From a virus (Duplodnaviria; Caudoviricetes), in the IMG/VR virus record IMGVR_UViG_3300005512_004265, positions 1 through 41,219 of that record: a stretch of 41,219 nucleotides of DNA; one strand, 5' to 3'. Positions 3,124-40,622 of this stretch are shown here, piece after piece; positions within the stretch are counted from its first letter, which is position 1, and every line of letters starts with the position of its first letter. The position numbers were made by a program, and so were the translations under genes. Under the pieces are notes generated by a model, which saw only the letters and a list, made by a program, of their open reading frames with translations, was not told the DNA's origin and searched no databases.

Positions 3124-3900
3124 ATGGTTGGTCGTCGTTGGACAGACACGGAATCCGAGTATGTTATCAAGCATTACGGCCGAAAAAAGGTCGATACCAT
3201 TGCGAGTTATCTTTCGCGGTCTGTCAGTTCGGTTTACCAGCACGCCCGAAAAATCGGGGTGTGTGAAACGCACGACAGGGCGGCGGCGGCCCGCCGTGAT
3301 TGCAAGATTAAACAGTTGCATTTGAAAGGGTGGTCGTCGAGTGAAATAGAAAAGGCGGTCGATATTGGTCATCGAAGCATACGCGAAAGAATTCATAAAA
3401 TGGGCATGATCCCAAACGGGAGAAACGCCAGATACCGAAAGCGAGTCGCGAAGAAAACGAAAGAACAATGCGCCGCCGCAGGCGTTAAAAACCTTGCTGA
3501 ATTGCGTTCGAAAGAAATGAAGCGAGTCGCTAGGAATCTTGGTTGGCCGGATTATTTGTCTTTGCGGTCGGTGCAAATTTTAGAGACTCTTTTTCAGCTA
3601 GGCCCGATGACTCGAAAACAGATCGCAAAAGCAATTGGCTTAAAGTGGGTCGGCGTCCAACATACATTTAAAAACAAAAGGGTTCCGGGGCACAATTACC
3701 TAGCGGAATTGCAGAGGGCCGGGCTTGTCGTCCGACTAGAATCAGCAATTACACATAAAGGAAAGGGAAACCACCAAGACTTATACATGGTGGCTTTAGA
3801 GGTTGAACCATGCCAGAAAGCAAGAACACGTTATCTATCACAGAAGTCGAAAAAACAATCGACCGCCACACAAACACCGTCGCGATGCAATGCCAACTAA
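3124..3900 (+). CDS. Basic multi-HTH DNA-binding protein
   Basis: WTDTESEYVIKHY...IASYLSRSVSSVYQHARKIG (Myb-like HTH), a second HTH (GWSSSEIEKAV) and a winged helix (GPMTRKQIAKAIG). Confidence 0.65.
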   Translation: MVGRRWTDTESEYVIKHYGRKKVDTIASYLSRSVSSVYQHARKIGVCETHDRAAAARRDCKIKQLHLKGWSSSEIEKAVDIGHRSIRERIHKMGMIPNGRNARYRKRVAKKTKEQCAAAGVKNLAELRSKEMKRVARNLGWPDYLSLRSVQILETLFQLGPMTRKQIAKAIGLKWVGVQHTFKNKRVPGHNYLAELQRAGLVVRLESAITHKGKGNHQDLYMVALEVEPCQKARTRYLSQKSKKQSTATQTPSRCNAN

Positions 3901-4103
3901 GGCACGCGATTTTTAACGCGATCAACGAAGATGACGTTTCAGAGATTGTGAAAAAGCAAGTCGAAAAGGCAAAACAAGGCGACAATAAATCGTTGCAGTT
4001 TGTAATGAAATACGTTCTTGGTTTCGGCCCACAAATGACCGTTCAGCAGATCAATGTTATGGACGTTGAAACGGCGGCAAGACTAGCCAACAAAAACAAG
4101 TAG
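3810..4103 (+). CDS. Hypothetical protein (helical family with VEKAKQGD motif)
   Basis: AINEDDVSEIVKKQVEKAKQGD...YVLG resembles a small family recalled from planctomycete prophages. Confidence 0.55.
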   Translation: MPESKNTLSITEVEKTIDRHTNTVAMQCQLRHAIFNAINEDDVSEIVKKQVEKAKQGDNKSLQFVMKYVLGFGPQMTVQQINVMDVETAARLANKNK

Positions 4104-4191
4104 ACGGTTTTTCGAAAACTTCGGCGTAGCATTTACGCCGCCCCGCGAGAATATGGTTTTCCATTTCAAACCATGTTCGAAAGTCTTTTGA

Positions 4192-4563
4192 ATGTCTCAG
4201 GTTATCCGCCAGCACGTCGCCGAAATTGCGGTCGGAAGTGCGACTAGCGACGAAATTAACGTTTCCGGTTTATTGTTCGGCACGATCCAGTTTCGCCGAA
4301 AAGATGGTTCGGCCGTTCCGACAGGAACTTGGCAAATCGAAGTTAATCGTGTGAAAGCCGACGAAGTCGACGACGACTATTTCGAGGCCGCGAAAGATTC
4401 ACTAAACGAAACGGTCGCCGCGATCGCGTTCGGCAACACAAACCGAATTTTTAACGTTCCGCCAGAGACGATGGCGTCGCGAAAATGCCGCGTCAAGCTT
4501 GCCAGCAATCTGACGGGCGACTCGCCGTTGCAAGTTGTGTTCAGTTGCTACGACAACGCGTAG
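4192..4563 (+). CDS. Small beta-rich protein, probably virion-associated
   Basis: IAVGSATSDEINVSG... jelly-roll-like composition; clean ORF after a promoter-like motif. Confidence 0.5.
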   Translation: MSQVIRQHVAEIAVGSATSDEINVSGLLFGTIQFRRKDGSAVPTGTWQIEVNRVKADEVDDDYFEAAKDSLNETVAAIAFGNTNRIFNVPPETMASRKCRVKLASNLTGDSPLQVVFSCYDNA

Positions 4564-4575
4564 AAAGCCGGAGCC

Positions 4576-5100
4576 ATGCAAAACGAAATCGCTCTAAACG
4601 AAACGCCCGTGCATATTCGCTGGATGATTAAACGCGACTTGCCGGAAGTGATCGACATTGAAAACCACGCTTTTGAATTCCCGTGGAGCGAAGACGATTT
4701 CATCGATCGACTTCGTAAACGGAACGTGATCGGGATGGTCGCCGAAAACGACGACGATATTTCGGGGTTCATGGTTTACGAGCTTAAAAAAGAGTCGTTG
4801 TATTTGATTAACTTCGCGGTGCACCCAGACGACCGCCGCGCGGGCGTCGGCCGTCAAATGATTCGAAAGATCATCGGGAAGCTTTCACCAACCCGCCGAA
4901 AAACGGTTTCGCTGGAAGTTCGCGAAACGAATTTCGCGGCGCAAATGTTTTTTCGGGCGAATGGATTCAGGTGCAATGCAACGATTCGCGATCGTTACGA
5001 CGACACAACCGAAGACGCGTATATTTTCGTTTACGACGTGGACGAGCCCGCCGCAACCATCACCACAAAAAACAGAATCAAGGGGCAAATTTTAGAATGA
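4576..5100 (+). CDS. rimI: Ribosomal-protein-alanine N-acetyltransferase (GNAT, RimI family)
   Basis: HIRWMIKRDLPEVIDIE..FEFPWSEDDF, NFAVHPDDRRAGVG (acetyl-CoA motif A), LEVRETNFAAQMFF..NGF, Y.DTTEDAY; GGAG RBS. Confidence 0.88.
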   Translation: MQNEIALNETPVHIRWMIKRDLPEVIDIENHAFEFPWSEDDFIDRLRKRNVIGMVAENDDDISGFMVYELKKESLYLINFAVHPDDRRAGVGRQMIRKIIGKLSPTRRKTVSLEVRETNFAAQMFFRANGFRCNATIRDRYDDTTEDAYIFVYDVDEPAATITTKNRIKGQILE

Positions 5101-5504
5101 GATCGAGCGAATTTATACAGACCGATTTAACCGCCGAAACGCTTTGCAAGGTCGACCAGCGGTTTAACGATGAAGTGACCGCCGAAATTCAAGCGGCGGT
5201 TTTGGATTGTTTGAAACGGCCGAATATTAAAAAGGTTCGGTCGTTTTCAATCGAACTTCGGATCGCCCCAAAAAACGAACGCGGGCAACTTGAATTTTCG
5301 ACGAAAGTTAGTTCGGTTAAAAGACCGCCCCGCGAATTTGACGTGTTAACCGCGATCGCCGATCCGGTTTCCGAGTCGATCGAATTTTTGCATAAACAAG
5401 GGGAACTTTTTTCCGAAACCGACCCGGCCGAAGTCGAGTTGATTTTGCGAGAACGCGAAGCGGTTCCGGTCGTTGATTACCGGGCGAAAGCGGCGGGCGA
5501 ATAA
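5097..5504 (+). CDS. Conserved phage hypothetical protein
   Basis: ATGA overlap with the rimI stop; AVLDCLKRPNIKKVRSFSIELRIAP motif. The longer 4971 start is unlikely. Confidence 0.6.
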   Translation: MRSSEFIQTDLTAETLCKVDQRFNDEVTAEIQAAVLDCLKRPNIKKVRSFSIELRIAPKNERGQLEFSTKVSSVKRPPREFDVLTAIADPVSESIEFLHKQGELFSETDPAEVELILREREAVPVVDYRAKAAGE

Positions 5505-7973
5505 ATGGCATTAAAAACGATCGATTTAGATATCGCCGACAACGGCGGGGTAACGCAAACGGTCGAGAGTCGAACCGATTGGGCGGATACTTGGTCAGAT
5601 CATAGTGCGACGGTTTTTTGCCGGACGGCCCGTTGGACGACTAACCCGGAAATGCCGTCGGCAACGTTGCATTATCGATACGGTTCGGTTGATATCGCGA
5701 AAGCCGGATCGTTTACAACTTACAAGCGAGCCCCGCCAATCAGTCGCGGCGATTTCGTTAAGTTGACTTTCGTCGGCCACGAAATATTGGCGGGAACCGC
5801 GACGGCCGGGGAGAAGACCGCCAGCAAGACGAAAATTTGGTTTGGCGTTGCGACTACGATCGACGACGACGATAACGGTTCGATTACGATCACGTGCGCA
5901 GGGCTGGAAAAACTACTAACCGAAAAAAATATCGATCAATCGGTTTGGTTTGTCGATCAGGCGGACGGAACGACCGCAAAAACGATTACTCAGGTTTTGA
6001 CTTTCAATCAAGGCAACGTCGGGAACCGATCAACAAATAAACTTTCGTCGAAGCATTACGGGTTTTCAGGCTACAAGCTTTTTACCGATCCGACCGGAAA
6101 CGAAAAATGGTCGACTCGCGACATTGTCGAATATGTCGCGGCCACGCAAACGCCGGTTGACGATTCCGGCACGTTAAACATCCCGTTTGAATTAGATGAT
6201 TCGGGCGGCGTGTTGCCCGACTACGATTCGCCAGAGGTGAACCCGGAAGGGCAAAAGGCGAAATCGTTTATCGATTCGCTGATCACACGTTCGCGGGGGC
6301 TTGGTTATTTTTTGGAAGTCGACGAAACCGCCACGCCGGATACAATCAAAATCAAGCCGTTCACGTATGCTTCGCAAGATATCGATTTGCCGATCACGTC
6401 GCCGCCAAATCAAAAGATTCCACAAAATCCGAACCGTTACATTTTCTTAACAAGTGGTTTTCAGGCCGGTTCGATCTTGGTACAGATCAACAACGAATCA
6501 AGATTCGATCGCGTTCGCGTTGTCGGCGGCCGGGCGGTTTATTGTTTTTCACTTTCCGGCCCCGACGGAAACTTGGTCGAAAAATGGAAGTCGAATTTAA
6601 AGACAGCCTACGACGAAGCGGCGTCGACCGACGGCGGGTATCCCGGAGCCGCTGAAATCGCCGACCGAGAAGTCGCGGACAACGTCGCCCGGTCGCACGT
6701 CATGTTTCGAAATGTTTATTCGCGTTTCGGCGTGAAGGTCGACGACCCGGATCACGCCGACCATTGGAGCGGCCAAGTTAAAAACGGGGAGAACGGCGGA
6801 ACGGCGAATTATGCTTTACCGGAACCAGATTCCGACCCGGTGACCGGGCAAGATTTCTACCCGCCTAATTTTCGATTCATTGATCAATTACCGCTTTTGA
6901 AAAATTACGACTACGAAGGCGGCACGACGCCCACGGTTCGAACCGACGAAGACGACGAAATCGGCGAACGTTATTTGTCGTCGCTTTCGTTTTTCAAACG
7001 GGTCGACGACGCGTCGAAATGGATCGAGGGCAATAAGATTTCAACGCTGGCGAACACGGAGCGCAGCGAATACGATTTTTCGATTGAAGTCGCCCCGGAC
7101 CAAAACGAGCCCGCGTTTTATGTTCAGGTCATCGGCCAGCCGCAACACATGATCGCCCCGATTACGGTCGGCGATTTGGAAGGAAAATTGACGAGCCGTT
7201 TTTCGCCATTGGCTTATGAGGCGGAATATTTCGCGACAAAGTCTTGGAATTATTGCACAGCGATTTTTACCGTCGCCGCATACGGGAACGACTATTGCGA
7301 AGCCACGGTCGGCGAAGCGTCGCCAATCGCGGACATGGTTCGCACGAAACGAATCGACGTCGGCGATCGGTTCCAAAAACACCACGTCGCCGACGGAACG
7401 GTCGTTGGCGTGAACGAGGCGACCGGAGCTTTGAAACGGCGTTCGGCCGCTGGCTTCGTCCGCGATGATTCGGAACAAGTTGAAGCGGTCGCCGAGTTTG
7501 CTTATTTGTGGTATTCGCTTGACCGGGCGACGTTGCGAATTTCGACAAACCATTTCGGCGATTTTGAGTTAGGGGCGATCGTCGCCAGTTTAACCGATGG
7601 GATCGCGGCGACGTTTAACGCGACCACGAATCGCGTTTCGATCACGGGCGGGCCGTATGCCAGCGGCGAAGCGGTTGTTTTCTATTTGGAAGATTCCGCC
7701 GTTTTACCTGCCCCGTTAACACCCGGCCAAATCTATTATTTAACTTCAACCATCGGCAGCGAATACGCGATCAGCTATCGAATCGACGGCCCGGAAATTG
7801 ACCTAACGGACGCGGGCAGCGGGAACGCGTTCGCAACCAACAGCGGAGCGAATACGCCGATTACGTCGGTCGAGTTGGCTTTGCCAGTCACGGTCGGAAG
7901 CGAAACGGCGGGTTTGGCCGAAACGTTAATTCAAACCGGAAACAGCGAATTTGACGTCAGGAATTTTGTTTAA
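5505..7973 (+). CDS. Large tail tip/baseplate hub-like protein (822 aa)
   Basis: IWFGVATTIDD..ITITCAGLEKLL is hub-like; acidic, beta-rich; a C-terminal LPAPLTPGQIYYL...IDLTDAGSG module is typical of virion proteins. Confidence 0.7.
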   Translation: MALKTIDLDIADNGGVTQTVESRTDWADTWSDHSATVFCRTARWTTNPEMPSATLHYRYGSVDIAKAGSFTTYKRAPPISRGDFVKLTFVGHEILAGTATAGEKTASKTKIWFGVATTIDDDDNGSITITCAGLEKLLTEKNIDQSVWFVDQADGTTAKTITQVLTFNQGNVGNRSTNKLSSKHYGFSGYKLFTDPTGNEKWSTRDIVEYVAATQTPVDDSGTLNIPFELDDSGGVLPDYDSPEVNPEGQKAKSFIDSLITRSRGLGYFLEVDETATPDTIKIKPFTYASQDIDLPITSPPNQKIPQNPNRYIFLTSGFQAGSILVQINNESRFDRVRVVGGRAVYCFSLSGPDGNLVEKWKSNLKTAYDEAASTDGGYPGAAEIADREVADNVARSHVMFRNVYSRFGVKVDDPDHADHWSGQVKNGENGGTANYALPEPDSDPVTGQDFYPPNFRFIDQLPLLKNYDYEGGTTPTVRTDEDDEIGERYLSSLSFFKRVDDASKWIEGNKISTLANTERSEYDFSIEVAPDQNEPAFYVQVIGQPQHMIAPITVGDLEGKLTSRFSPLAYEAEYFATKSWNYCTAIFTVAAYGNDYCEATVGEASPIADMVRTKRIDVGDRFQKHHVADGTVVGVNEATGALKRRSAAGFVRDDSEQVEAVAEFAYLWYSLDRATLRISTNHFGDFELGAIVASLTDGIAATFNATTNRVSITGGPYASGEAVVFYLEDSAVLPAPLTPGQIYYLTSTIGSEYAISYRIDGPEIDLTDAGSGNAFATNSGANTPITSVELALPVTVGSETAGLAETLIQTGNSEFDVRNFV

Positions 7974-7981
7974 AAATAACT

Positions 7982-9166
7982 ATGCCGCCAACCGAAAAAA
8001 TATCCGACCGGATCGCCCGAATTGAAAGAGAGAACCGCGATTTAAAATCCGCGATCGCTCGAATTGAATCAACCGTCGAACGTTCCGCCAAACCACGTAA
8101 GACGGAAGGATGGGCGAAGATAATCGCAACGACGGCCGACGCGAATGTTTTCGACGCCGTGATGGTTGATATCTTCGACAAGACAACCGCCGCCACGCCG
8201 ACCGCCCGATCGGCGACCGCAAACATTGAAGCCGTAACGGTGAACGGTTCAGATTCGTTAAGCGTCGACGATATCGTTAAGGTCAGTCTCGAAAAAGGGA
8301 TTTGGACGGTGATTCCCAGCGGCGGTGATATCGAACCCGTGATCGCTTGCCATTCTGATTCTTTAGGTTACAGCTATCGCGGTTTGTCAAGTTCAAACCT
8401 TCTTCTTTATAGCGGCGGCGTCGATCGATACGGGACAGCACAAACCGTCGACTTTTTAATGCGATCCAATAACCATTCAGTTATTGGGCCGTCCGGGGTT
8501 TCGAGTCGGTACGCGATTAAATCGCCGGGCGTTTTTGCTTATTCGATCCCGTGGGCGATTCGAATAAACGACCCGCCGCCAGAACAAACGACCGTCGGTT
8601 TGTTAACGCATGGCGTCGAATTTTCTTATGATGGGAGCGGACACGTCGACGGAATCCGCAACGCGCCCGCCGCCGATGGTAACTATAACCCGTTTGCGAC
8701 TTTGTACACTTATCCCACGGTCGAGATTTCCGCGTTTTTGTACGACGCCCAGCGAACCGCCGTTAGTAGTGGCGTCGGGATAATCTTTGCTGCCGAAAAC
8801 GCTTGCGGCGGGTTTGATACTCAAATTAGAAGCGGCGGCATTGACTCAAACTTCGACACGTATGGCGGACTTTGGGAAGATTATTTAGATAGCGGCGCAT
8901 TGGGCCGAACTTGGCACGGTTGCATTAGCGGGGCTTTTGCGATTAGCCAAGAAAGCCTTGATAATTTACAGGGTGGCGGGGCGTCGGTCGGCGTTGAATT
9001 TTCACGCGGCGCAATTAACGGCGGCGACTCAGATTTTAATTGGCAATTTGCCGTCGGCGGGTTCGTGATTTATTCGCCCCGCAATCCGCTTTTTTACAAC
9101 GGACTTTCAATACCTGAAATCGGGACCATCCCGCCGGGCGGCGGCGTAAATCCCACAACCGGATAA
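7982..9166 (+). CDS. Putative tail fibre/receptor-binding protein
   Basis: N-terminal coiled coil, then a Gly/Ser/aromatic-rich beta region; follows the tail tip gene. Confidence 0.6.
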   Translation: MPPTEKISDRIARIERENRDLKSAIARIESTVERSAKPRKTEGWAKIIATTADANVFDAVMVDIFDKTTAATPTARSATANIEAVTVNGSDSLSVDDIVKVSLEKGIWTVIPSGGDIEPVIACHSDSLGYSYRGLSSSNLLLYSGGVDRYGTAQTVDFLMRSNNHSVIGPSGVSSRYAIKSPGVFAYSIPWAIRINDPPPEQTTVGLLTHGVEFSYDGSGHVDGIRNAPAADGNYNPFATLYTYPTVEISAFLYDAQRTAVSSGVGIIFAAENACGGFDTQIRSGGIDSNFDTYGGLWEDYLDSGALGRTWHGCISGAFAISQESLDNLQGGGASVGVEFSRGAINGGDSDFNWQFAVGGFVIYSPRNPLFYNGLSIPEIGTIPPGGGVNPTTG

Positions 9167-9605: not shown

Positions 9606-9947
9606 GCCAATTCGCGCCTATTCGATTTTACGGATTTGGCCGTGAAATCTAATTGTTTTGGTCGCGTTTCGCTTGTGAAAAGAGACTAAAAACCGGCCTA
9701 AATCCCGGTTTTTTTGACCGTTTTTGGGCCGAAAATCACTAAAACGCCCGGTTTTTTGCTTCTGAAATCCGCGATTTGCACTAGAAACACGCTAAAAAAG
9801 GCCCCCTTTTAGGTACTGATCCCCAAAAATCAGGCTTTATCGCGGTCCCTAGGCCCGCGTCAAATTTGCGCGCGGGGTGTTTTGTTGTGATTCACCACCA
9901 CCACCCATAAAATGCGGGTTTGTCACGCGTTTTTTGAGGTTTTGAAA

Positions 9948-11189
9948 ATGTCGTCATTGTTCCGCCGGGAAAACGGAAAGTTCACGATTCAGGTTTCGCA
10001 CAATCGCCGCCGACATTCGATTCGGTTAAACGTTTCCGGGAAGTCCCAAGCGAAAGAGATACAACGCCACGTCGATCGGATTTGTGATTCAATCGCCGCC
10101 GGAGTCTCGGCCGACGTCGCGTCGTTGGCGTGGGTTTCTAGGCAGTCGCCAGAAATGCGAAACCGGCTTGCAAAAATCGGTCTTATTGATCGGCGTCAAC
10201 TTTTGATCACGGTCGGCGATTTGCTTGATTCGTTGAGGGAATCGAATCAGTCACTAGAACAGAAAACCGCTAGAAATTACGAATGGGCGTTTGTTTATCT
10301 TGAACGCTTCTTCGGTCGCGATGGCCGCTTGGCGTCGATCACGCCGGGCGACGCCGACGATTTCGCTAGGTCGCTACGAAGCCAAGATTCAAAGCGGGGC
10401 GATGGTTCCCGGAAGCTTTCGCCGTCAAGCGTTTCGACGTTGCTTTCGTCGGCGAAGATTGTTTTCAACCGGGCGGTTAAAACAGAATCGATTTTTCGAA
10501 ATCCGTTCGCGGATATTAAAACGCCGACGCCTAGGAACGAAAGCAATTTTTTTTTCGTGGATCGTGAGACGTGCGACGCAGTTTTTGAAAATCTCGACTC
10601 AGGTTTTCCGACGGAACACAAATTGACGTTCGCTTTCGCCCGATGGGGCGGCGTTCGAGCTCCAAGCGAAACCCGTTCGCTCGAATGGGACTATGTCGAT
10701 TTTGATAATCAAAAAATTCGCATTTGGGGGCAAAAGACGAAAAAGTTTCGGTCGATCCCGATTTTCCCGGAAATGGTCGATCCGCTCGAAGCTATGCGGG
10801 CGGAAACTTTCGACCGTCAATTTGTGTTCCCGGCGTCGCGTTCGCACTCAAAGTCGTTTTTCTACGAAGCTTTGTCGGCGGCCATAAAAAAGGCCAGGTT
10901 AAAACCTTGGCCGCGATTGGTGCAGAATCTAAGGGCGACGCGTTCGAACGAAATTGAGCGAGAATTCGGGGCAAAAATCGAAGCGGCTTGGATTGGGCAC
11001 GATTCGAAAATCGCCGCCGAAAATTACTTTTCGGTTTCCGACTCTGATTTTGCGAAAGCGGCGAACCCCGTTTCGAAATTGTCGCAAATCATTTCAGATC
11101 GTTCTGTATTGCGATCAGAGCTTTCGTTATTAACCGACGAAGCCCGCGACATTCTTTTGAACGAATTAAAAGAATTTGTTTTTACTTAA
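9948..11189 (+). CDS. int: Tyrosine recombinase (phage integrase)
   Basis: Arm-binding N-terminus, core-binding region ending RNPF, and catalytic motifs RWGGVRAPSE, KTKKFRSIP, QNLRATR, WIGH...NY. Confidence 0.92.
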   Translation: MSSLFRRENGKFTIQVSHNRRRHSIRLNVSGKSQAKEIQRHVDRICDSIAAGVSADVASLAWVSRQSPEMRNRLAKIGLIDRRQLLITVGDLLDSLRESNQSLEQKTARNYEWAFVYLERFFGRDGRLASITPGDADDFARSLRSQDSKRGDGSRKLSPSSVSTLLSSAKIVFNRAVKTESIFRNPFADIKTPTPRNESNFFFVDRETCDAVFENLDSGFPTEHKLTFAFARWGGVRAPSETRSLEWDYVDFDNQKIRIWGQKTKKFRSIPIFPEMVDPLEAMRAETFDRQFVFPASRSHSKSFFYEALSAAIKKARLKPWPRLVQNLRATRSNEIEREFGAKIEAAWIGHDSKIAAENYFSVSDSDFAKAANPVSKLSQIISDRSVLRSELSLLTDEARDILLNELKEFVFT

Positions 11190-11226
11190 TAAATCTTTTG
11201 ATCTTCTTTTAACTTTTGACCGCCCA

Positions 11227-11277
11227 CCGGGCCAGATCACCCGGCCCGCCGGGCCAGATCACCCGGCCCGCCGGGCC
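11227..11277. repeat. 22-bp tandem repeat CCGGGCCAGATCACCCGGCCCG x2.3
   Basis: Copies at 11227..11248 and 11249..11270, partial at 11271..11277; each unit is self-complementary at its ends. Confidence 0.9.
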
Positions 11278-11331
11278 GGTTACAAAATGCAGGCCCGCGC
11301 GGGCGTCTGTTTCCAACCATCCGGGGCGATC

Positions 11332-11706
11332 CGGTGCAAAATCCGGTGCATTCTGTTTCGATGCGCATTCGGCGCATTTGTGGCCGAAAATGCGCATTGC
11401 ATGCGCAGGACGTCATTTCACACGTAAAAAACCACGTAAAAACAGCAATAAAAAACTTTTGAAAAAAATCGCGTGCGCATAAAACTGGCAAAAAATCGCA
11501 TTTCGACTGATACAAGATCGGGCAAGGGATGGCAAAAACGCCGGGGAAAACGGCAGTTTTGAAAATAAGCGGTGTAAAATCCGGTGCATTTTAGGAACGA
11601 ATGCGCATTTCGGGTTTTCATTTTTTCGAAAATTTCGGGGCGGTTTATCTAATCCGAAAAAACACGGGGCGGATTTGTTTTGGCGTCTGCGCATTGCATG
11701 CGCAGG
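11332..11706. other. Repeat-rich non-coding region, candidate attP with arm-type sites
   Basis: CGGTGYAAAATCCGGTGCATT at 11332 and 11570; TGCGCATTGCATGCGCAGG at 11391 and 11688; directly downstream of int. Confidence 0.5.
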
Positions 11707-11842
11707 CGACTAAACCGCCCGGAAACGTGTGCTACATTCGGCCCCGTCACACGCCGAAACGAGACAACGGCGGGCCGGGCTCGAAAATTCTTCGGGCGTG
11801 TGACAACGACCCGGCCCGCTGATTTTTTTCGGAGTCAAACGA

Positions 11843-14097: not shown

Positions 14098-14579
14098 GCC
14101 CACAAAAAAAGATACTCGAAAAGCTACGGACGGCCCAAGCGTTAATCGATCAGGCATTCGAGGAAATCCGACAACTAGAATTCGCTTCGTCGGAGCCGTC
14201 GCCCGCCGACGATCCACGAACGCCAAACGTTAAACCGATGGTCGCTTTTCGAAAAACCGACCCGGCCGAATATGAAAACGAATTTAATGGCATGATCGGC
14301 CGAATCCGAAGGCGGTTTTCTATGCCGGACGGGTCACCGATTCACATCGACTGGTTTGATTTTGTTCGCGACTTGCAAAACGCGGGCAAGACTCCCGACG
14401 AAGCCCGCCAGCAAATCGCCCCGCGTGTAAAGTCTGAATTGATTCAGCGGCCAGAGTTCACGGCCAAAAATTCAGGTGCGGCCCCGGATCGCGGCCAGCC
14501 ACACGGAACACCCGCGACCCCGCCGCCACCACCACCGAAAAAGATTTCACAAAACCAGCTTTTTAACGCCCGCCGATGA
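14094..14579 (+). CDS. Hypothetical protein, Pro-rich C-terminus
   Basis: ATGA overlaps on both sides. Confidence 0.6.
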   Translation: MSPQKKILEKLRTAQALIDQAFEEIRQLEFASSEPSPADDPRTPNVKPMVAFRKTDPAEYENEFNGMIGRIRRRFSMPDGSPIHIDWFDFVRDLQNAGKTPDEARQQIAPRVKSELIQRPEFTAKNSGAAPDRGQPHGTPATPPPPPPKKISQNQLFNARR

Positions 14580-15340
14580 TCGATCGAAAACCGCCGCTTG
14601 GCGTGGTCGTTGACGCGACCAATCAAATCACGGTGAATTACAAAGCCGGAAAAGGCAACGTCGAGACAGCGACGTTTATTCGCCAATTAGAGGCAATCGA
14701 ACGGACATGCAAACCGCAACACTTGATCGCGGCTTTTGATTCGCCCGATTCGTACCGAAAAACGATTTCGCTAGATTACAAAGCGAACCGCCCGCCGAAA
14801 GAATTGAATTTAGTTAAGTCGTTGAAGCTGGCGAAAGATCGCGCTATGGATGCGGGATGGATCATCGCCGAGATTCAGGGATTCGAAGCCGACGACGTTT
14901 TGGCCAGTTTCGCAAAAACGCTTTCGGATCGCGGCGACCGCGTGTTGCTAGTTTCACGCGATAAAGATTTAAACCAATGCTTACGGGCGGGGCTTGTCAC
15001 GATTTGCAAAAAAGTCACGTCGGCCGACGGCCCGGTCGATTTTTTAACCGCGTCGGATTGCCAAGAAAAATTTGGCGTCGATCCTGATCAATGGATCGGC
15101 TATCAAACGCTAATCGGCGACGCTGGCGATAATATCAAAGGCGTCGACGGGATCGGGCCCAAGACCGCCGCGAAGTTAATTCGCGCCGCGGGCGACGTCG
15201 AAAAAGTTTTTCGAATGCCAGAGATAAGCGGATCGCAAAAATTGACGGCCAGCATCAAGCGTTTTGTTTCGCGATCCGAAACGGTTCGCCAGTTGGTCAC
15301 GCTTCGCGACGATTTGCCGGTCGCTGATTATTTAAGATAA
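14576..15340 (+). CDS. 5'-3' exonuclease/flap endonuclease (Pol I N-terminal/T4 RNase H family)
   Basis: AFDS, YKANR, EADDV, DKDL, GDAGDNIKGVDGIGPKTA (H3TH). Confidence 0.92.
   Translation: MIDRKPPLGVVVDATNQITVNYKAGKGNVETATFIRQLEAIERTCKPQHLIAAFDSPDSYRKTISLDYKANRPPKELNLVKSLKLAKDRAMDAGWIIAEIQGFEADDVLASFAKTLSDRGDRVLLVSRDKDLNQCLRAGLVTICKKVTSADGPVDFLTASDCQEKFGVDPDQWIGYQTLIGDAGDNIKGVDGIGPKTAAKLIRAAGDVEKVFRMPEISGSQKLTASIKRFVSRSETVRQLVTLRDDLPVADYLR
15264..15329. repeat. 66-bp direct repeat, copy 1 (3' end of the exonuclease gene)
   Basis: 65/66 identical to 15990..16055. Confidence 0.95.
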
Positions 15341-15425
15341 CGATCAAGGTAACCGGGTTGCCGGGGAAGACTATGAATACAAAGACCGACGTAGACGGCA
15401 ACTCCGGTTCACCGCCTTGTTATCC
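15335..15425 (-). other. Integron attC site (91 bp, minus strand)
   Basis: Minus strand reads R'' GGATAAC, 5 nt, L'' GGTGAACC, GGAGTTGCCG...loop...CGGCAACC, L' GGTTACC, 6 nt, R' GTTATCT. Two extrahelical bases (15410 and 15403) lie on the R''-L'' arm. Confidence 0.85.
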
Positions 15426-15924
15426 GGCTGTTCTCGATCCGTGTTGCGGTACGCGAATGTTTTGGTTTGACCGAACAGACGAGCGAGCAGTGTACAACGA
15501 CATTCGGAAAGGCGTGCGGGTGATTGATGTTGGCACGCCCGGAACAAAGGGGCGAAAGCCAAAGGTTGTGGCCCCGGATGAAATCGCGGATTTCCGCCAG
15601 ATGGCTTACCCGGATGAGACGTTCTGGCATGTGGTGTTTGACCCGCCACACTTCCACAAGGGAGCAGGAGCGACTGGTCGAATCGCGTTTGACTTCGGTT
15701 TGCTTGCGGATACGTGGCGGGATGATTTGCGGGCCGGGTTTGCGGAGTGTTTCCGCGTATTGAAGCCACACGGGACGTTGATTTTCAAGTGGTGTGAAGC
15801 CGAGATACCGTTGCGGGAAGTGTTGGCGCTGACGGAAGAAAAACCGCTGTACGGGCACCGGAGCGGGAAGAAGGCACAGACGCATTGGGGGTGTTTCATG
15901 AAGTCGCCAGCGGGTGGCGGATAA
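15373..15924 (+). CDS. SAM-dependent DNA methyltransferase (DPPH-type phage family), carried as a gene cassette
   Basis: VLDPCCG.RMFWFD (motif I), VVFDPPH (motif IV variant), GFAECFRVLKPHGTLIFKW, THWGCFMK. Confidence 0.88.
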   Translation: MNTKTDVDGNSGSPPCYPAVLDPCCGTRMFWFDRTDERAVYNDIRKGVRVIDVGTPGTKGRKPKVVAPDEIADFRQMAYPDETFWHVVFDPPHFHKGAGATGRIAFDFGLLADTWRDDLRAGFAECFRVLKPHGTLIFKWCEAEIPLREVLALTEEKPLYGHRSGKKAQTHWGCFMKSPAGGG

Positions 15925-15942
15925 CTTGTTTTTATCCGGTCT
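15919..15942 (-). other. attI-like (also dif-like) recombination site
   Basis: Minus strand AGACCGGATAA-AAACAAG/TTATCC has the same TAA-N7-TT geometry as the attI1 core CCCTAA-AACAAAG/TT. Confidence 0.65.
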
Positions 15943-15989
15943 AGCTAACCGGGCAAGCACTTATTTTTTTAATTACCCGGTTCGGGGCG

Positions 15990-16066
15990 TTGTTTCGCGA
16001 TCCGAAACGGTTCGCCAGTTGGTCACGCTTCGCGACGACTTGCCGGTCGCTGATTTTCTCAGGTGA
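15990..16066 (+). repeat. 66-bp direct repeat, copy 2, with an alternative exonuclease C-terminus (..ADFLR*)
   Basis: Matches 15264..15329, then continues TTT CTC AGG TGA, versus TAT TTA AGA TAA in copy 1. Confidence 0.9.
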
Positions 16067-16078
16067 TCGCCGCCGGTT

Positions 16079-16095
16079 TTTACAGAATCTGTAAA
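16079..16095. promoter_or_regulatory. 17-bp palindrome TTTACAGAATCTGTAAA, copy 1 (before the lysis-like block)
   Basis: Exact copies at 16079, 24195 and 30389; -10-like GATAAT at 16133. Confidence 0.7.
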
Positions 16096-16150
16096 GCTTT
16101 TTTTGCCCGCCGCCCAAGGCCCGCCGCCCCGCGATAATATGAAAACGAAT

Positions 16151-29200: not shown

Positions 29201-29585
29201 GTGGACAAAAATACGAGTTAATCGATCAGGGGATACGATATCGTTTTTCATCGATGATGTTTTGGTTCAGTCCGGTTCAGTTAGCACAATTGGGTATGCC
29301 GCGACTGAATCAACCAACATGTTCTTGATGGGGCATATCTTTAGCAGTTACTCACCGGGGTACGTGAAGAATCTCAAGCTATCGACTGGCAGTACGGTTC
29401 TGATTGATCGACCGTATTACAAAGACAATCTTGACCGATCTTTGAATACAGACCACGGAGACGGAACTGGCATCACGTTCCTATCAAACGCGATGGAAAC
29501 CGATTTGAACCCAGAGTTCGCCGAAACCGAAACACGAGCCGTTACCAGCGGCGACCGCAAAATCATATCACTAGGAGCACGATAG
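26202..29585 (+). CDS. Large virion adhesin-like protein with multiple LamG/ConA-like jelly-roll and CBM-like domains
   Basis: VVGVYD...SIYVNG...FRIA...WFGNVYEAQVWNDQALTAAEI and two to three similar repeats; YESDWSSGLDGW CBM-like segment. Confidence 0.8.
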   Translation: MLDLRTNLPSRANDVADLVIAKAYRNLGFNRSAAETFGAWYVSKTPTGNVIEDETPGRKSRTELATTGSVFDGTNYFETLTAGSEVCGTDDTAFTVRVVFSGNGSSANGDYVCATHDDSPSEGWRIWLNSGFISFSLQDLAGVNRSVSSTLTEAQIQAGGIYEVVGVYDPDADTVSIYVNGEYHEENAAPSFDAATQGRFRIATKANATTGKWFGNVYEAQVWNDQALTAAEIVRLWGKEISYFQGAKAPSVAWLLDGPTCTDLIGDNDLTPVADPAAYVGSFGSTWLNDQGYGTTAYESDWSSGLDGWTVVNNSTIDVVDFEGETNVLRLTVGDEASERMELASDFLTDGESYTLKFDIYIPSSNTTVDSVRWTASAIGSGTLSPSDAWTSYTQTNQVADTANPMRLYAIAGGQVTGLTIGDVFYLANVEIIAEESVFPKRWNADLNSKGYAGDVNSFGPCKRNREYSNGPAIDLNGVDQYGVKPNSHDYSGEDWTLSGYCLTDAGGTRDILSQTSGTGQGRTIFGRYVTTNKWVTNVGGSAAEFSSISDIVLGREYFFELVHDYSASSMTLTVTDLTTSVTESETLTSLVMESANGDFNVGANRLATTFWDGKIWGLSLECTTDPTKSFNCPISEEVGIVSHNTLNPASPIAWQGDPTWDFTANDVFFHGETVGYSSVPIFVDPVELIANGNINMDGIKTASIEIDFLTRSKTNTFYCQGSVSPFRLSFTTAGFTFSYRDDTNAVVSSTIPMTYETGVVYRLKFDLVEHDTNPTTESYATVSDRITGEVYGTVTGLNFAASTASSNSGPAQIGSYANATSSVDADIYRVRSVIGGVKELLWTSDNYLVNQANDSAMNESGGTLSVKKIPAVSKALDANGYPTTNPAGPYHNRTAAEVTETPVANSDSVNPIYFAAEFDGTTARENLGNQKLVDGFDLEFSFYMSSGGSEPVIDSTNNNSATNPGLGITKDSSENISFVVRGASGAISYDTTSAIYNSRWTKIRVNRSGDTISFFIDDVLVQSGSVSTIGYAATESTNMFLMGHIFSSYSPGYVKNLKLSTGSTVLIDRPYYKDNLDRSLNTDHGDGTGITFLSNAMETDLNPEFAETETRAVTSGDRKIISLGAR

Positions 29586-30384: not shown

Positions 30385-30409
30385 AAGCTTTACAGAATCT
30401 GTAAAGCTT
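30385..30409. promoter_or_regulatory. 17-bp palindrome, copy 3, extended to 25 bp (before the capsid gene)
   Basis: AAGCTTTACAGAATCTGTAAAGCTT; TAAAGT at 30446. Confidence 0.7.
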
Positions 30410-30458
30410 TTTTTTTGTGCGACTTTGAAGCGGGCAACCCCGCGTTAAAGTTGTGGAC

Positions 30459-35031: not shown

Positions 35032-35709
35032 ATGAAAATCACGGAAGAAATCAAGCAAGCCGCGTTTAATTGTTTAACCGTTTACAAAAACGCGTCGGCG
35101 TTCGTACCCGTCTTGGAACATTACAACGAAGAATGGATTCAGTCGATCGACACTTTAAAAGACGGAAAACAGATCCGCCGGATTACGATTCGCGGTTCCG
35201 ACGACCCGGTCGACTGGCTTCGTAACTTGGATTTGAAACAACGGCCGGTCGTGCCCGGTTTCAACGCGTCGCGGGGCGTGATCAAGTCGGCCCGCACGTT
35301 ATTAACCGGATTGATCAAGCACGACTTCGACTTCAACGACGCCCGCCCGATCCAAATCGAGGGGCATTCAAAAGGCGGGGCCGTCGCTCAGGTGTTGGCC
35401 GTTTGGCTTCACGATCGCGGTTGCAAGATCGACGACGTGATCACGTTTGGCTGCCCCCGGATCACCCGCCAAGCGTTTGAATATCCGTTTCCCGTCACGC
35501 AAATATCCGTCGCAGGTGATCCGGTTCCATTCGTTCCGTGCTGGCGACCGTGGCGGCCGTTCCAGTGGACGTGGCGACACAATGGCGACACGCAAAAACT
35601 AGGTCGTCGGACGATGGCGACCGAGTCGAAAGAATTCTTTTTGATTAAACGAATGATTTCTTCGCATTTAATGGCCAATTATTGTTCCGTGTTGGGGGTC
35701 AAGTGTTAG
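35032..35709 (+). CDS. Class 3 lipase (alpha/beta hydrolase)
   Basis: IRGSD..DWL.NL, GHSKGG (nucleophile elbow), TFGCPR, GDPVP (Asp), SHLMANY (His). Confidence 0.88.
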   Translation: MKITEEIKQAAFNCLTVYKNASAFVPVLEHYNEEWIQSIDTLKDGKQIRRITIRGSDDPVDWLRNLDLKQRPVVPGFNASRGVIKSARTLLTGLIKHDFDFNDARPIQIEGHSKGGAVAQVLAVWLHDRGCKIDDVITFGCPRITRQAFEYPFPVTQISVAGDPVPFVPCWRPWRPFQWTWRHNGDTQKLGRRTMATESKEFFLIKRMISSHLMANYCSVLGVKC

Positions 35710-37113: not shown

Positions 37114-37311
37114 ATGGAGATTAAGAGCCTTCGCGACTTAAACGTCGCGATTTCAGCCACGCCCGACGCGATTGATATCATCGAAGCGCAGCGGGTAACC
37201 CAAGTTTTGATCGACGTCGCGGCGAAACAGCCAAACGAAGTCGTCGGCGTCTTGGTCGACGAATTGATTAAAGCCCGTGACAGGAACCCGCCGGGCAATT
37301 CGCCCGAATAG
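37114..37311 (+). CDS. Small hypothetical protein
   Basis: Clean ORF followed by a terminator. Confidence 0.5.
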   Translation: MEIKSLRDLNVAISATPDAIDIIEAQRVTQVLIDVAAKQPNEVVGVLVDELIKARDRNPPGNSPE

Positions 37312-38938: not shown

Positions 38939-40429
38939 ATGGCCACGCAAAAACAAAAATTCATAACGGACGGTTCGCAGGTTAATCGCGAAATGGACAA
39001 GATGCGAAAAGCACTTGTCAAACAACGCGAAGAAATGAAAAAGATCACGCAAGCCAGCCGGGCGATGGCGACCGAAGCGAAAAAATCAAATCAGACCATG
39101 CGTCGCGGGTTTTCAAATATCGCCAGTGGGGCCGAATCGGCGATCAAAAGTTATGTCGGAATGCAGACCGCAATTTCGGCGGTGAATTCCGTTTTGGCGG
39201 ATCAAAAACGATTGCAAGGCGAAGCACTCAGTGTTTCGACAACGGTTGCTAGATCACAAGCGTCGATCGTAAAAAATATCGGGCAAGTTTCGAAAAAGGA
39301 ATTAAGTTCGTTTTTGGATCAGGTCGAGAAGATCAACACCGAAACAAAGTTCGGCGATCAAGGGCAATTGAATCTAGCGGCGTCGTCGTTGTTATCCGGG
39401 ACCGGCGGCAACCAAAACCAGACGATCGACATTTTGCGAGAAGCGGCCCCGTTTTTTCGCGACGCCCCGGCCCAACTCGCGAGTTTTTCGGGAGCCGTCG
39501 CCGACGTACAAAAAGCGACCGGCGGATCGGCAAAAGAAACGCTTGGTTTGGTTTTGGGTATTCAAGGGCAAGCCCGAATCGACCGCTTGGACGCGTTAAA
39601 AAACTTGGCCCCGGCGGTCGCTCAGTCGCGAGTTTATACGGAAGGAGCGAACCGGGCCGAAGAAACCCGCCAAGCCGGGGCACTGTTCGCGGCGATCGGA
39701 GCCCAAACGGGCGACGTCGAAGGGGCGTCGACGTCAACGGCCGTGATCGCGTTGCAAAAGAAATTAGAAGAAACGTTTCCGTCGCTTGATGGTTTCCAAG
39801 ACAAATTGAAAGCGATCCGCGAAGCGGACGTTACGACACGCGAAGAATTTTTGAAAGCAGGATTCGAGGCGAAAGCGGCGGGCGTGATCCGCGAGTTAAT
39901 CACCGACACCAATTCGCAAACGTCCAAAAACCTTGACGACGCATTGAGCAAGATCACGTCGTCGCCGAAGCGGGTCGACGAAATGCGTTCGCTATTGATC
40001 GGCGGCACAAAAGAATTAGAACTTCAGGGAATCCAGAAAAGCGGCAAGACCGCAAAAGAACAATATTTAGAATCAACCGGGATGGCCCCACTTGCCGAAG
40101 CCAGAAACCAAGCGGTCGAGGCGTTGGCCGCAACACGGGCCCGCAACTTGGCTTCGTCGTCGCTTAACTTTATGGCCGAATCGGTCGAGATGAACGCGTT
40201 ATCAGGATCGACGCCCGTTTCGCAAATCGACACGTTCATTGATCAATTGACCACGCGACAACAGCAAGTGCAAAACCGTTTTTCGATTAACCCATTCGGA
40301 AGCGGGATCGATGAAAATGATCGACGCGAACAATTAAAACTTTTGCGATCGACGGTCGAAGAATTAAAAAAGCTTCGTTCGCAAGCGGCCGCCGCGACCG
40401 GGAACCGGAACCAAGAAGAAACACAATAA
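38939..40429 (+). CDS. Tape measure protein (allele B 3' end), ~496 aa
   Basis: Long A/Q/S-rich helical protein after the frameshifting chaperone. Confidence 0.8.
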   Translation: MATQKQKFITDGSQVNREMDKMRKALVKQREEMKKITQASRAMATEAKKSNQTMRRGFSNIASGAESAIKSYVGMQTAISAVNSVLADQKRLQGEALSVSTTVARSQASIVKNIGQVSKKELSSFLDQVEKINTETKFGDQGQLNLAASSLLSGTGGNQNQTIDILREAAPFFRDAPAQLASFSGAVADVQKATGGSAKETLGLVLGIQGQARIDRLDALKNLAPAVAQSRVYTEGANRAEETRQAGALFAAIGAQTGDVEGASTSTAVIALQKKLEETFPSLDGFQDKLKAIREADVTTREEFLKAGFEAKAAGVIRELITDTNSQTSKNLDDALSKITSSPKRVDEMRSLLIGGTKELELQGIQKSGKTAKEQYLESTGMAPLAEARNQAVEALAATRARNLASSSLNFMAESVEMNALSGSTPVSQIDTFIDQLTTRQQQVQNRFSINPFGSGIDENDRREQLKLLRSTVEELKKLRSQAAAATGNRNQEETQ

Positions 40430-40622
40430 GACCGGCCGCAGGTAAAGAGAAATCACCCACAGGCTAGAAGCCTATGCCACGCGACCGCTGGTTTTTCAGT
40501 CACAGGCTAGAAGCCTATGCCACACCCCAGAAACGGCCGAAAATTTGAACGCCAGCCCCTAGGGTAACGTGTGCAAATGTTGCGTTTTATTAGGTCGCTT
40601 TGCCAATAAAAAGAGAAAAGCC
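39937..40622. repeat. Imperfect terminal direct repeat, copy B
   Basis: Pairs with 1..~690. Confidence 0.92.
40458..40523 (-). repeat. REP doublet, copy B
   Basis: All 66 nt identical to 522..587. Confidence 0.75.

Follow-up and report, generated by a model that had tools for sequence, protein, structure and literature searches.

How does a phage that encodes no recognisable integron integrase come to carry a gene cassette, and why does the gene in this cassette read against the polarity of its own recombination site? The question is raised by a phage contig of 41,219 nt, which is the whole of an IMG/VR record (hereafter the window) and is listed there as linear and 51% complete. The contig encodes a lambda-type terminase, a portal protein, an S49 protease-capsid fusion and a phage tyrosine integrase (9912-11189, plus strand; phrog_1), the last of which suggests a temperate lifestyle. 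A plus-strand run of replication-type genes ends in a 5'-3' exonuclease (14576-15340; PF02739 and PF01367), the last core gene of this early run, and directly after it lies a gene cassette of 584 bp (15341-15924, minus strand) with an antisense gene. We favor, with moderate confidence, the explanation that this is a one-cassette, integrase-less integron platform made up of an attC of a planctomycete family, an antisense methyltransferase and a likely host-type attI, which a host IntI would recombine in trans. The parts of this explanation differ in strength: that the locus consists of att sites in reverse polarity is very probable, that a host IntI built it is probable, and that recombination is currently active in the phage is somewhat doubtful.

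Other parts of the contig also merit description. Its ends form a terminal repeat of 662 bp with 92% identity (1-661 against 39937-40596), with divergence beyond it and with two 28-bp repeats 43 bp apart in each copy. Behind the integrase, a gene-poor region with short repeats (11190-11840) is a candidate attP or origin, and a 26-bp sequence that recurs unchanged ahead of two gene blocks (16079-16104 and 30389-30414) is a possible late promoter or operator. A GNAT acetyltransferase gene and a class 3 lipase-like gene lie amid the structural genes (4576-5100 and 35032-35709).

Recombination sites and the orientation of the gene

The left boundary of the cassette is an attC of a Planctomycetota chromosomal family (15335-15425, minus strand), recognized by covariance model, by fold and by a model-free rule. 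On the minus strand the site opens with R'' (15425-15419), after which come a 5-nt spacer, L'' (15413-15406) and then the stem and loop, and the second arm consists of L' (15354-15348), a 6-nt spacer and R' (15341-15335). The site thus has the R''-5nt-L''...L'-6nt-R' layout of an attC with AAC and GTT cores, and its extrahelical bases, C15410 and T15403, are confined to one arm on the plus (bottom) strand; the predicted crossover lies between 15341 and 15340. A preliminary description of this DNA, made from its letters alone, had recognized a canonical minus-strand attC with these spacers and two extrahelical bases, and had proposed an attC model as a check. A covariance model built from host sites matches the minus strand at 78.9 bits without a broken pair, the plus strand at 17.6 bits and the next site in the window at 16.7 bits, in a test that is partly circular in that its training sites (65 of 125 distinct host sites) were retrieved with a pattern taken from the L boxes of the window attC. 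The attC loop, which is absent from that pattern, still aligns to the host-family model, and covariation in the family, in an alignment chosen by the pattern, exceeds that of 500 out of 500 shuffles. By the model-free rule (AAC-5nt-L''...L'-6nt-GTT) this is the sole site in the window, and six host arrays yield 45 sites, all of the expected polarity; a relaxed rule gives 55 sites of right and 2 of wrong polarity in the host arrays and two weak extra sites in the window. There was no Rfam match at the locus. By these measures the left site is an attC of the host family, and its predicted recombining strand is the coding strand of the phage.

Compared with shuffled sequences, the hairpin has a z-score of -2.85 on the plus strand (1 of 200 shuffles as good) and -1.86 on the minus strand (9 of 200). 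These modest scores, and the lack of sites in the majority of the distant homologs, are what speaks for reading the locus as an ordinary phage gene that happens to be flanked by a hairpin and by GTT motifs. We give that idea next to no credence, as it is refuted by the distance between 78.9 and 16.7 bits, by the rank of the right site among attI candidates and by a breakpoint at the core in a relative.

That right site is an attI-like element (15919-15937, minus strand) with an L box at 15937-15931, a 5-nt spacer and an R box at 15925-15919, and its crossover is predicted between 15925 and 15924. Host attI were located as the box near intI that is complementary to the R'' of the first cassette, and the 16 bases before GTT in 14 such sites were compiled into a matrix. 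Eight of these come from the 11 model-matched loci among 29 IntI loci and six from other loci; L028 was left out as a duplicate of L168, and in L075 the candidate nearer to intI was taken. The site at 15925 ranks first among the 1837 GTT sites of the window on this small and noisy matrix, whose own 14 sites have leave-one-out scores of -5.2 to 7.7, with 11.1 bits against 8.35 for the next, and it is also first among 148 equally AT-rich GTT sites. Its rank was stable over seven widths and 14 jackknives, and none of 200 column-shuffled matrices put it first. The rank speaks for a likeness of the right site to host attI rather than for a function as one, and the attI-type geometry of the preliminary description is upheld. 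The element has the L box, 5-nt spacer and GTT core of the cognate host attI and no hairpin, and it adjoins neither an intI gene nor a cassette promoter; scans for promoters and terminators did no better than chance, with no promoter-like site near it. At five other phage loci, terminal sites picked by eye ranked 2/355, 5/352, 2/191, 7/223 and 5/105 as attI. We also considered and rejected the right site as a second attC, the best score in 15900-16020 being 3.6 bits despite a 6-bp stem resembling that of the family. Upstream of the attI-like core is an inverted repeat (15947-15982; z -2.2), possibly an accessory binding region or a decayed site; the corresponding regions of 7 of the 14 host attI fold at z < -2.

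Alternatively, a host IntI may have put a single cassette at an ordinary GTT, as described for attG and SALINs, such that the right site is no dedicated attI. IntI inserts at any GWT, with hotspots that come near attI efficiency (10.1101/2022.09.11.507474, available text), and the locus has one attC only, whose core overlaps the exonuclease stop codon. We nonetheless hold this to be quite improbable, because the site outranks 1836 other GTT sites on the host attI matrix, the 148 equally AT-rich ones included, because similar sites terminate reverse arrays in other phages, because it is followed by 65 bp of non-exonuclease sequence, and because the reversed gene would be left unexplained. SALINs, in the available text of the same paper, resemble the locus in combining one attC and a gene in the absence of a nearby integrase, but they are defined as lacking any other att site, whereas the window has an attI-like site and a reversed gene.

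The two 7-mer boundary boxes of the cassette, one at its start and the other its own R'', are complementary, as the preliminary description had seen for this 584-bp segment, and as far as boxes can tell this shows that the cassette was once circular. Box complementarity was rejected as proof of polarity, since it is symmetric and canonical cassettes look identical. Reverse polarity follows instead from the asymmetry of the 5- and 6-nt spacers and the extrahelical bases, matched to host arrays; from the position of the hairpin upstream of the gene and of a non-hairpin site downstream; and from linkage, as hairpin-encoded N-termini travel with the gene and C-termini change past the core. In a canonical cassette the gene lies on the top strand of the attC and upstream of it; here the gene is on the plus strand and the attC on the minus strand, and the earlier observation that the gene opposes its att sites is correct. 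The single attC also sets the locus apart from CALINs, which have at least two attC without intI.

With its most likely start codon, the gene begins and ends within the sites themselves. A purine-rich, ribosome-site-like motif (15363-15369) and the ATG at 15373 lie inside the attC loop (15363-15375, plus strand), and this ATG is most likely the start of the methyltransferase, with a predicted product of 183 aa. The stop codon, TAA at 15922-15924, sits in the crossover core, where it reads the TTA of that core in reverse complement, and the exonuclease stop (15338-15340) falls in R' of the attC. An ATG in the bottom-strand loop is found in 47 of 122 host attC, with an SD-like motif in one of the 47; both together occur in the window attC and in one site of a second phage (L266). 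We infer that the start signal in the loop is a host hairpin feature adapted for translation start.

The cargo itself (15373-15924, plus strand) is a SAM-dependent methyltransferase that matches phrog_954 at 7e-59, has no Pfam or NCBIfam match, and contains LDPCCG and DPPH motifs, the latter invariant in 44 of 44 homologs. Its model is a confident class I fold (pLDDT 86.2) that matches generic class I enzymes (M.TaqI, RNA and small-molecule methyltransferases) with a best TM of about 0.5, and the search for a solved close relative found none. The protein combines a class I SAM fold with a DPPY-type motif, as DNA amino-methyltransferases do, and we propose that it is likely such an enzyme and protects against restriction. 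CGAT/ATCG occurs at 5.4 per kb in its gene and at 14-27.5 per kb in five core genes. Homologs are carried by 252 phage records and were not found in the 5 and in the 401 Planctomycetia genomes searched.

Host integrons, integrases and phage relatives

The L-box pattern of the attC retrieved 123 loci in species genomes, which among the 80 listed are mostly Planctomycetota by title, and the family occurs in arrays beside true IntI. This supports an earlier guess at a planctomycete host, the assignment being drawn from the attC family alone. Integrases adjoining family attC passed TIGR02249 in 7 of 7 cases tested, 20 of 121 genomes of the host order have an IntI above the cut-off, and a 2.3-kb segment of the window matches genomes of this order mainly via the attC. 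With these sedentary chromosomal integrons the window locus shares its attC family, its box geometry and a matching attI core. It differs in having neither intI nor the upstream cassette promoter arrangement, and in that its attI is downstream of the gene and its gene is antisense, whereas host arrays are mostly canonical: by a crude longest-ORF rule, 28 of 52 intervals from six arrays have their longest ORF on the attC strand and 10 have it on the opposite strand, with 14 unclear. The cassette start is complementary to its own R'' in 39 of these intervals. One host integron (L075, 2910-4749) has intI on the same strand as attC and is of the inverted-integrase type. Inverted-integrase integrons, as in Treponema and others, go by the label 'reverse integron'. 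They share with the window a non-textbook orientation, but in the available account it is intI that is flipped relative to attC (10.1101/030866), whereas in the window it is the gene, and there is no intI.

On the contig, the best six-frame score against TIGR02249 is 14.9 bits at a cut-off of 265; with no intI gene the locus is not a complete integron. The absence of a recognisable IntI, claimed before, is confirmed for the contig only, given that this is listed as linear and 51% complete. The sole tyrosine recombinase in the window is the phage integrase at 9912-11189, which the TIGR02249 search rules out as an IntI. Could a phage-encoded, Xer-like recombinase from other phages work such mirror-image sites in place of the host IntI? 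In L266 a 291-aa ORF upstream of an array of attC (3486-4361) looks recombinase-like by eye; it has no Pfam match. This possibility we regard as very unlikely, because the same attC family adjoins true IntI in host chromosomes, the right site matches the attI of those integrons, the window has no second recombinase, and PF00589 has no match in 5 of 5 related records. Neither L266 nor four other related records, all of them incomplete, match TIGR02249. The host IntI remains the builder that we prefer.

Phage relatives of the gene suggest how it travels. In the closest other copy (L001), 88% identity runs from the middle of the hairpin up to the AAC at 15925 and breaks off exactly there, and among further relatives the N-termini encoded by the hairpin stay with the gene and the C-termini change after the core (e.g. 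P0078-P0081 and P0085), with hairpins that by eye are of several different types. Complementary boundary boxes are present in 9 of 10 distinct relatives with at least 70% identity, in 6 of 70 below that and in 1 of 215 shifted controls. These patterns support the view that related genes are mobile as cassettes, with the AAC as breakpoint. Judged by its boxes, most of the methyltransferase family (the orphan phage DNA methyltransferases of phrog_954, to which the window protein belongs) is not in cassettes and the close clade is. A rule-based attC detector, which is insensitive outside the planctomycete family and missed published sites of phage TJE1, was run on 80 distinct methyltransferase loci (92 minus duplicates and end-truncated loci); it found 5 adjacent sites, all antisense, and farther off 8 antisense and 3 sense.

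The preliminary description had linked breakpoints in relatives to the AAC triplets and had pointed to related contigs for an empty site, for different or multiple cassettes at this position and for the circular junction. The first expectation was borne out by L001, and no relative with an empty allele was found; neither an empty site nor an alternative cassette nor a circular junction turned up in the viral contigs and genomes searched. The only DNA spanning the locus (L136 and L137) is the same filled allele. Close relatives beyond this allele were not found by exonuclease and terminase and by two exact patterns against viral contigs and one pattern against genomes, and a prophage relative was not found in three samples of 401 genomes (family by exonuclease, order by locus DNA, class by methyltransferase).

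A second planctomycete-type phage, L266, has five family attC on the minus strand and genes on the plus strand. All five of its box pairs are complementary, and its array terminates in an attI-like site; having at least two attC, L266 would count as a CALIN. This five-cassette reverse array (4475-8140, also in L270) includes one multi-gene cassette of 1870 bp. A reverse array of mixed attC types lies at 3890-5340 of L271, with an attI-like end near 3901. In L001 (2940-3570) the flanking hairpins are each decayed to a single arm, nearly identical to that of the L266 site at 4997-5087, which shows that such cassettes apparently also freeze. Polarity is not absolute. Among the eight viral loci with the family pattern, three had no model match, two in the viral collection (L267/L268) are canonical, and three, from two phages, are reverse.

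The 73-bp duplication and gain of the locus

The cassette and attI are bracketed by a 73-bp direct repeat that escaped the preliminary description. Copy 1 (15264-15336, plus strand) is the 3' end of the exonuclease, whose protein ends DYLR, and copy 2 (15990-16062, plus strand) is a second exonuclease 3' end that reads DFLR, followed by TGA at 16064-16066. The copies are 95% identical and 726 bp apart. Exonuclease relatives at 97% and 91% identity end DFIR (P0052) and DFLR (P0054), like copy 2, and DYLR is found in P0001, P0053 and a 76% relative. Copy 2 is probably the original end of the exonuclease. On the basis of the flanking duplication and the relatives that end like copy 2, the lineage probably gained attI and cassette whole, as a block of 726 bp, in which case an allele without the gene may lack attI entirely. 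A longest contig of 18,181 bp is common to P0052 (exonuclease), P0193 and P0072 (flanking genes), and this length is absent among the 16 of 20 methyltransferase-cluster members listed, which is indirect evidence. The exonuclease was also considered as an earlier cassette and rejected, with no matching box near its start.

Block gain raises the prospect that an integron-derived cassette and its attI entered through homologous or illegitimate recombination and have since ceased to recombine, with selection maintaining the methyltransferase alone. The direct repeat with its spacing of 726 bp, the endings of P0052 and P0054, the distribution of the 18,181-bp contig and the observation of the filled allele alone all speak for this. 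We consider it unlikely, since both sites are intact (an attC at 78.9 bits with no broken pair, and an attI ranked 1/1837), unlike the decayed hairpins of L001, and since gain as a block would leave room for IntI activity later on.

Under the explanation that we favor, an integrase-less platform served by a host IntI, the IntI would recombine an excised circle, as its folded plus strand, with the attI at 15925/15924. As the attI faces back into the early gene run, every new cassette would join the end of that run, and only one whose gene opposes its own attC would be co-transcribed. Translation would likely draw its ribosome site and its start codon from the hairpin loop and its stop from the crossover core, such that units are translated independently. 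Ordinary host cassettes, which are often anti-phage, would land antisense and be silent unless they carry a promoter. This lineage would probably have received attI and cassette as a single 726-bp block, with the 73-bp duplication left behind.

Published phage integron components and significance

Phage attC arrays with this methyltransferase family are already published (PMC9892861), and the locus is a variant of phage-borne integron components, not a new class. Qi et al. 2023 describe 17 phage CALINs and five cassette methyltransferases, report that IntI1 recombined 5 of 6 phage attC tested, state that SOS induces IntI and prophages alike, and mention divergent attC directions in one phage (PMC9892861, available text). 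These CALINs share with the window attC in phages without intI and a methyltransferase cargo; the cassette methyltransferase of ctTUS972 is 56% identical over 111 aa to the window protein and, by eye, has hairpin-like and AAC flanks as in the window. They differ in having two or more attC where the window has one, and antisense genes as a class, in-loop starts and a terminal, operon-facing attI are not described in the available text of PMC9892861. The published array of TJE1 is canonical, unlike the reverse polarity of the window. In attC1 of P12002L the strand listed as bottom is the coding one, but the site failed the assay of Qi et al. (PMC9892861, available text). Literature searches, with subscription papers and bioRxiv supplements outside their scope, found no published account of reverse polarity together with a terminal attI. 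An attC model for Planctomycetes exists (PMC8352920, available text).

Two of these phages offer further observations. In P12002L (L275), a 15-mer similar to the attI-like core of the window, with one base of length difference, occurs on the coding strand at 29220-29234 and 37246-37260; both copies follow methyltransferase-type genes, and one lies within the site published as attC2. The ctTUS972 array (L276, 2069-2132 and 2620-3200) seems to run antisense to the genes it carries, and the start of its methyltransferase probably lies inside the hairpin, earlier than annotated.

Bottom-strand selectivity sets the orientation in which cassettes are inserted (PMC5027507, available text), and chromosomal integrons store anti-phage cassettes, many cassettes in Vibrio being anti-phage (10.1101/2024.07.02.601686, available text). 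We tentatively hypothesize, leaning slightly against it ourselves, that phages keep a backward-built cassette pool of their own, in which host IntI, attC family and attI are shared with the host and polarity alone separates the pools, and that the attI platform passes from phage to phage as a small block. Placed at the end of the early operon, a phage attI would express only reverse cassettes, that is, counter-defense genes with a start in the hairpin. Captured host defense cassettes would be silenced in the phage, and phage cassettes would be silent in host arrays.

Host family, cognate IntI and cognate attI can all be identified here and the cassette measures 584 bp, which makes the locus a clean test case. 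Tools that require two attC or sense genes overlook such loci, and the variable N- and C-terminal tails of such phage proteins can be explained as translated att sites. Integrons are now viewed as stores of anti-phage genes. If our explanation is true, the phage docks counter-defense cassettes via the host integrase and would turn the integron against its owner, with orientation deciding which genes are expressed.
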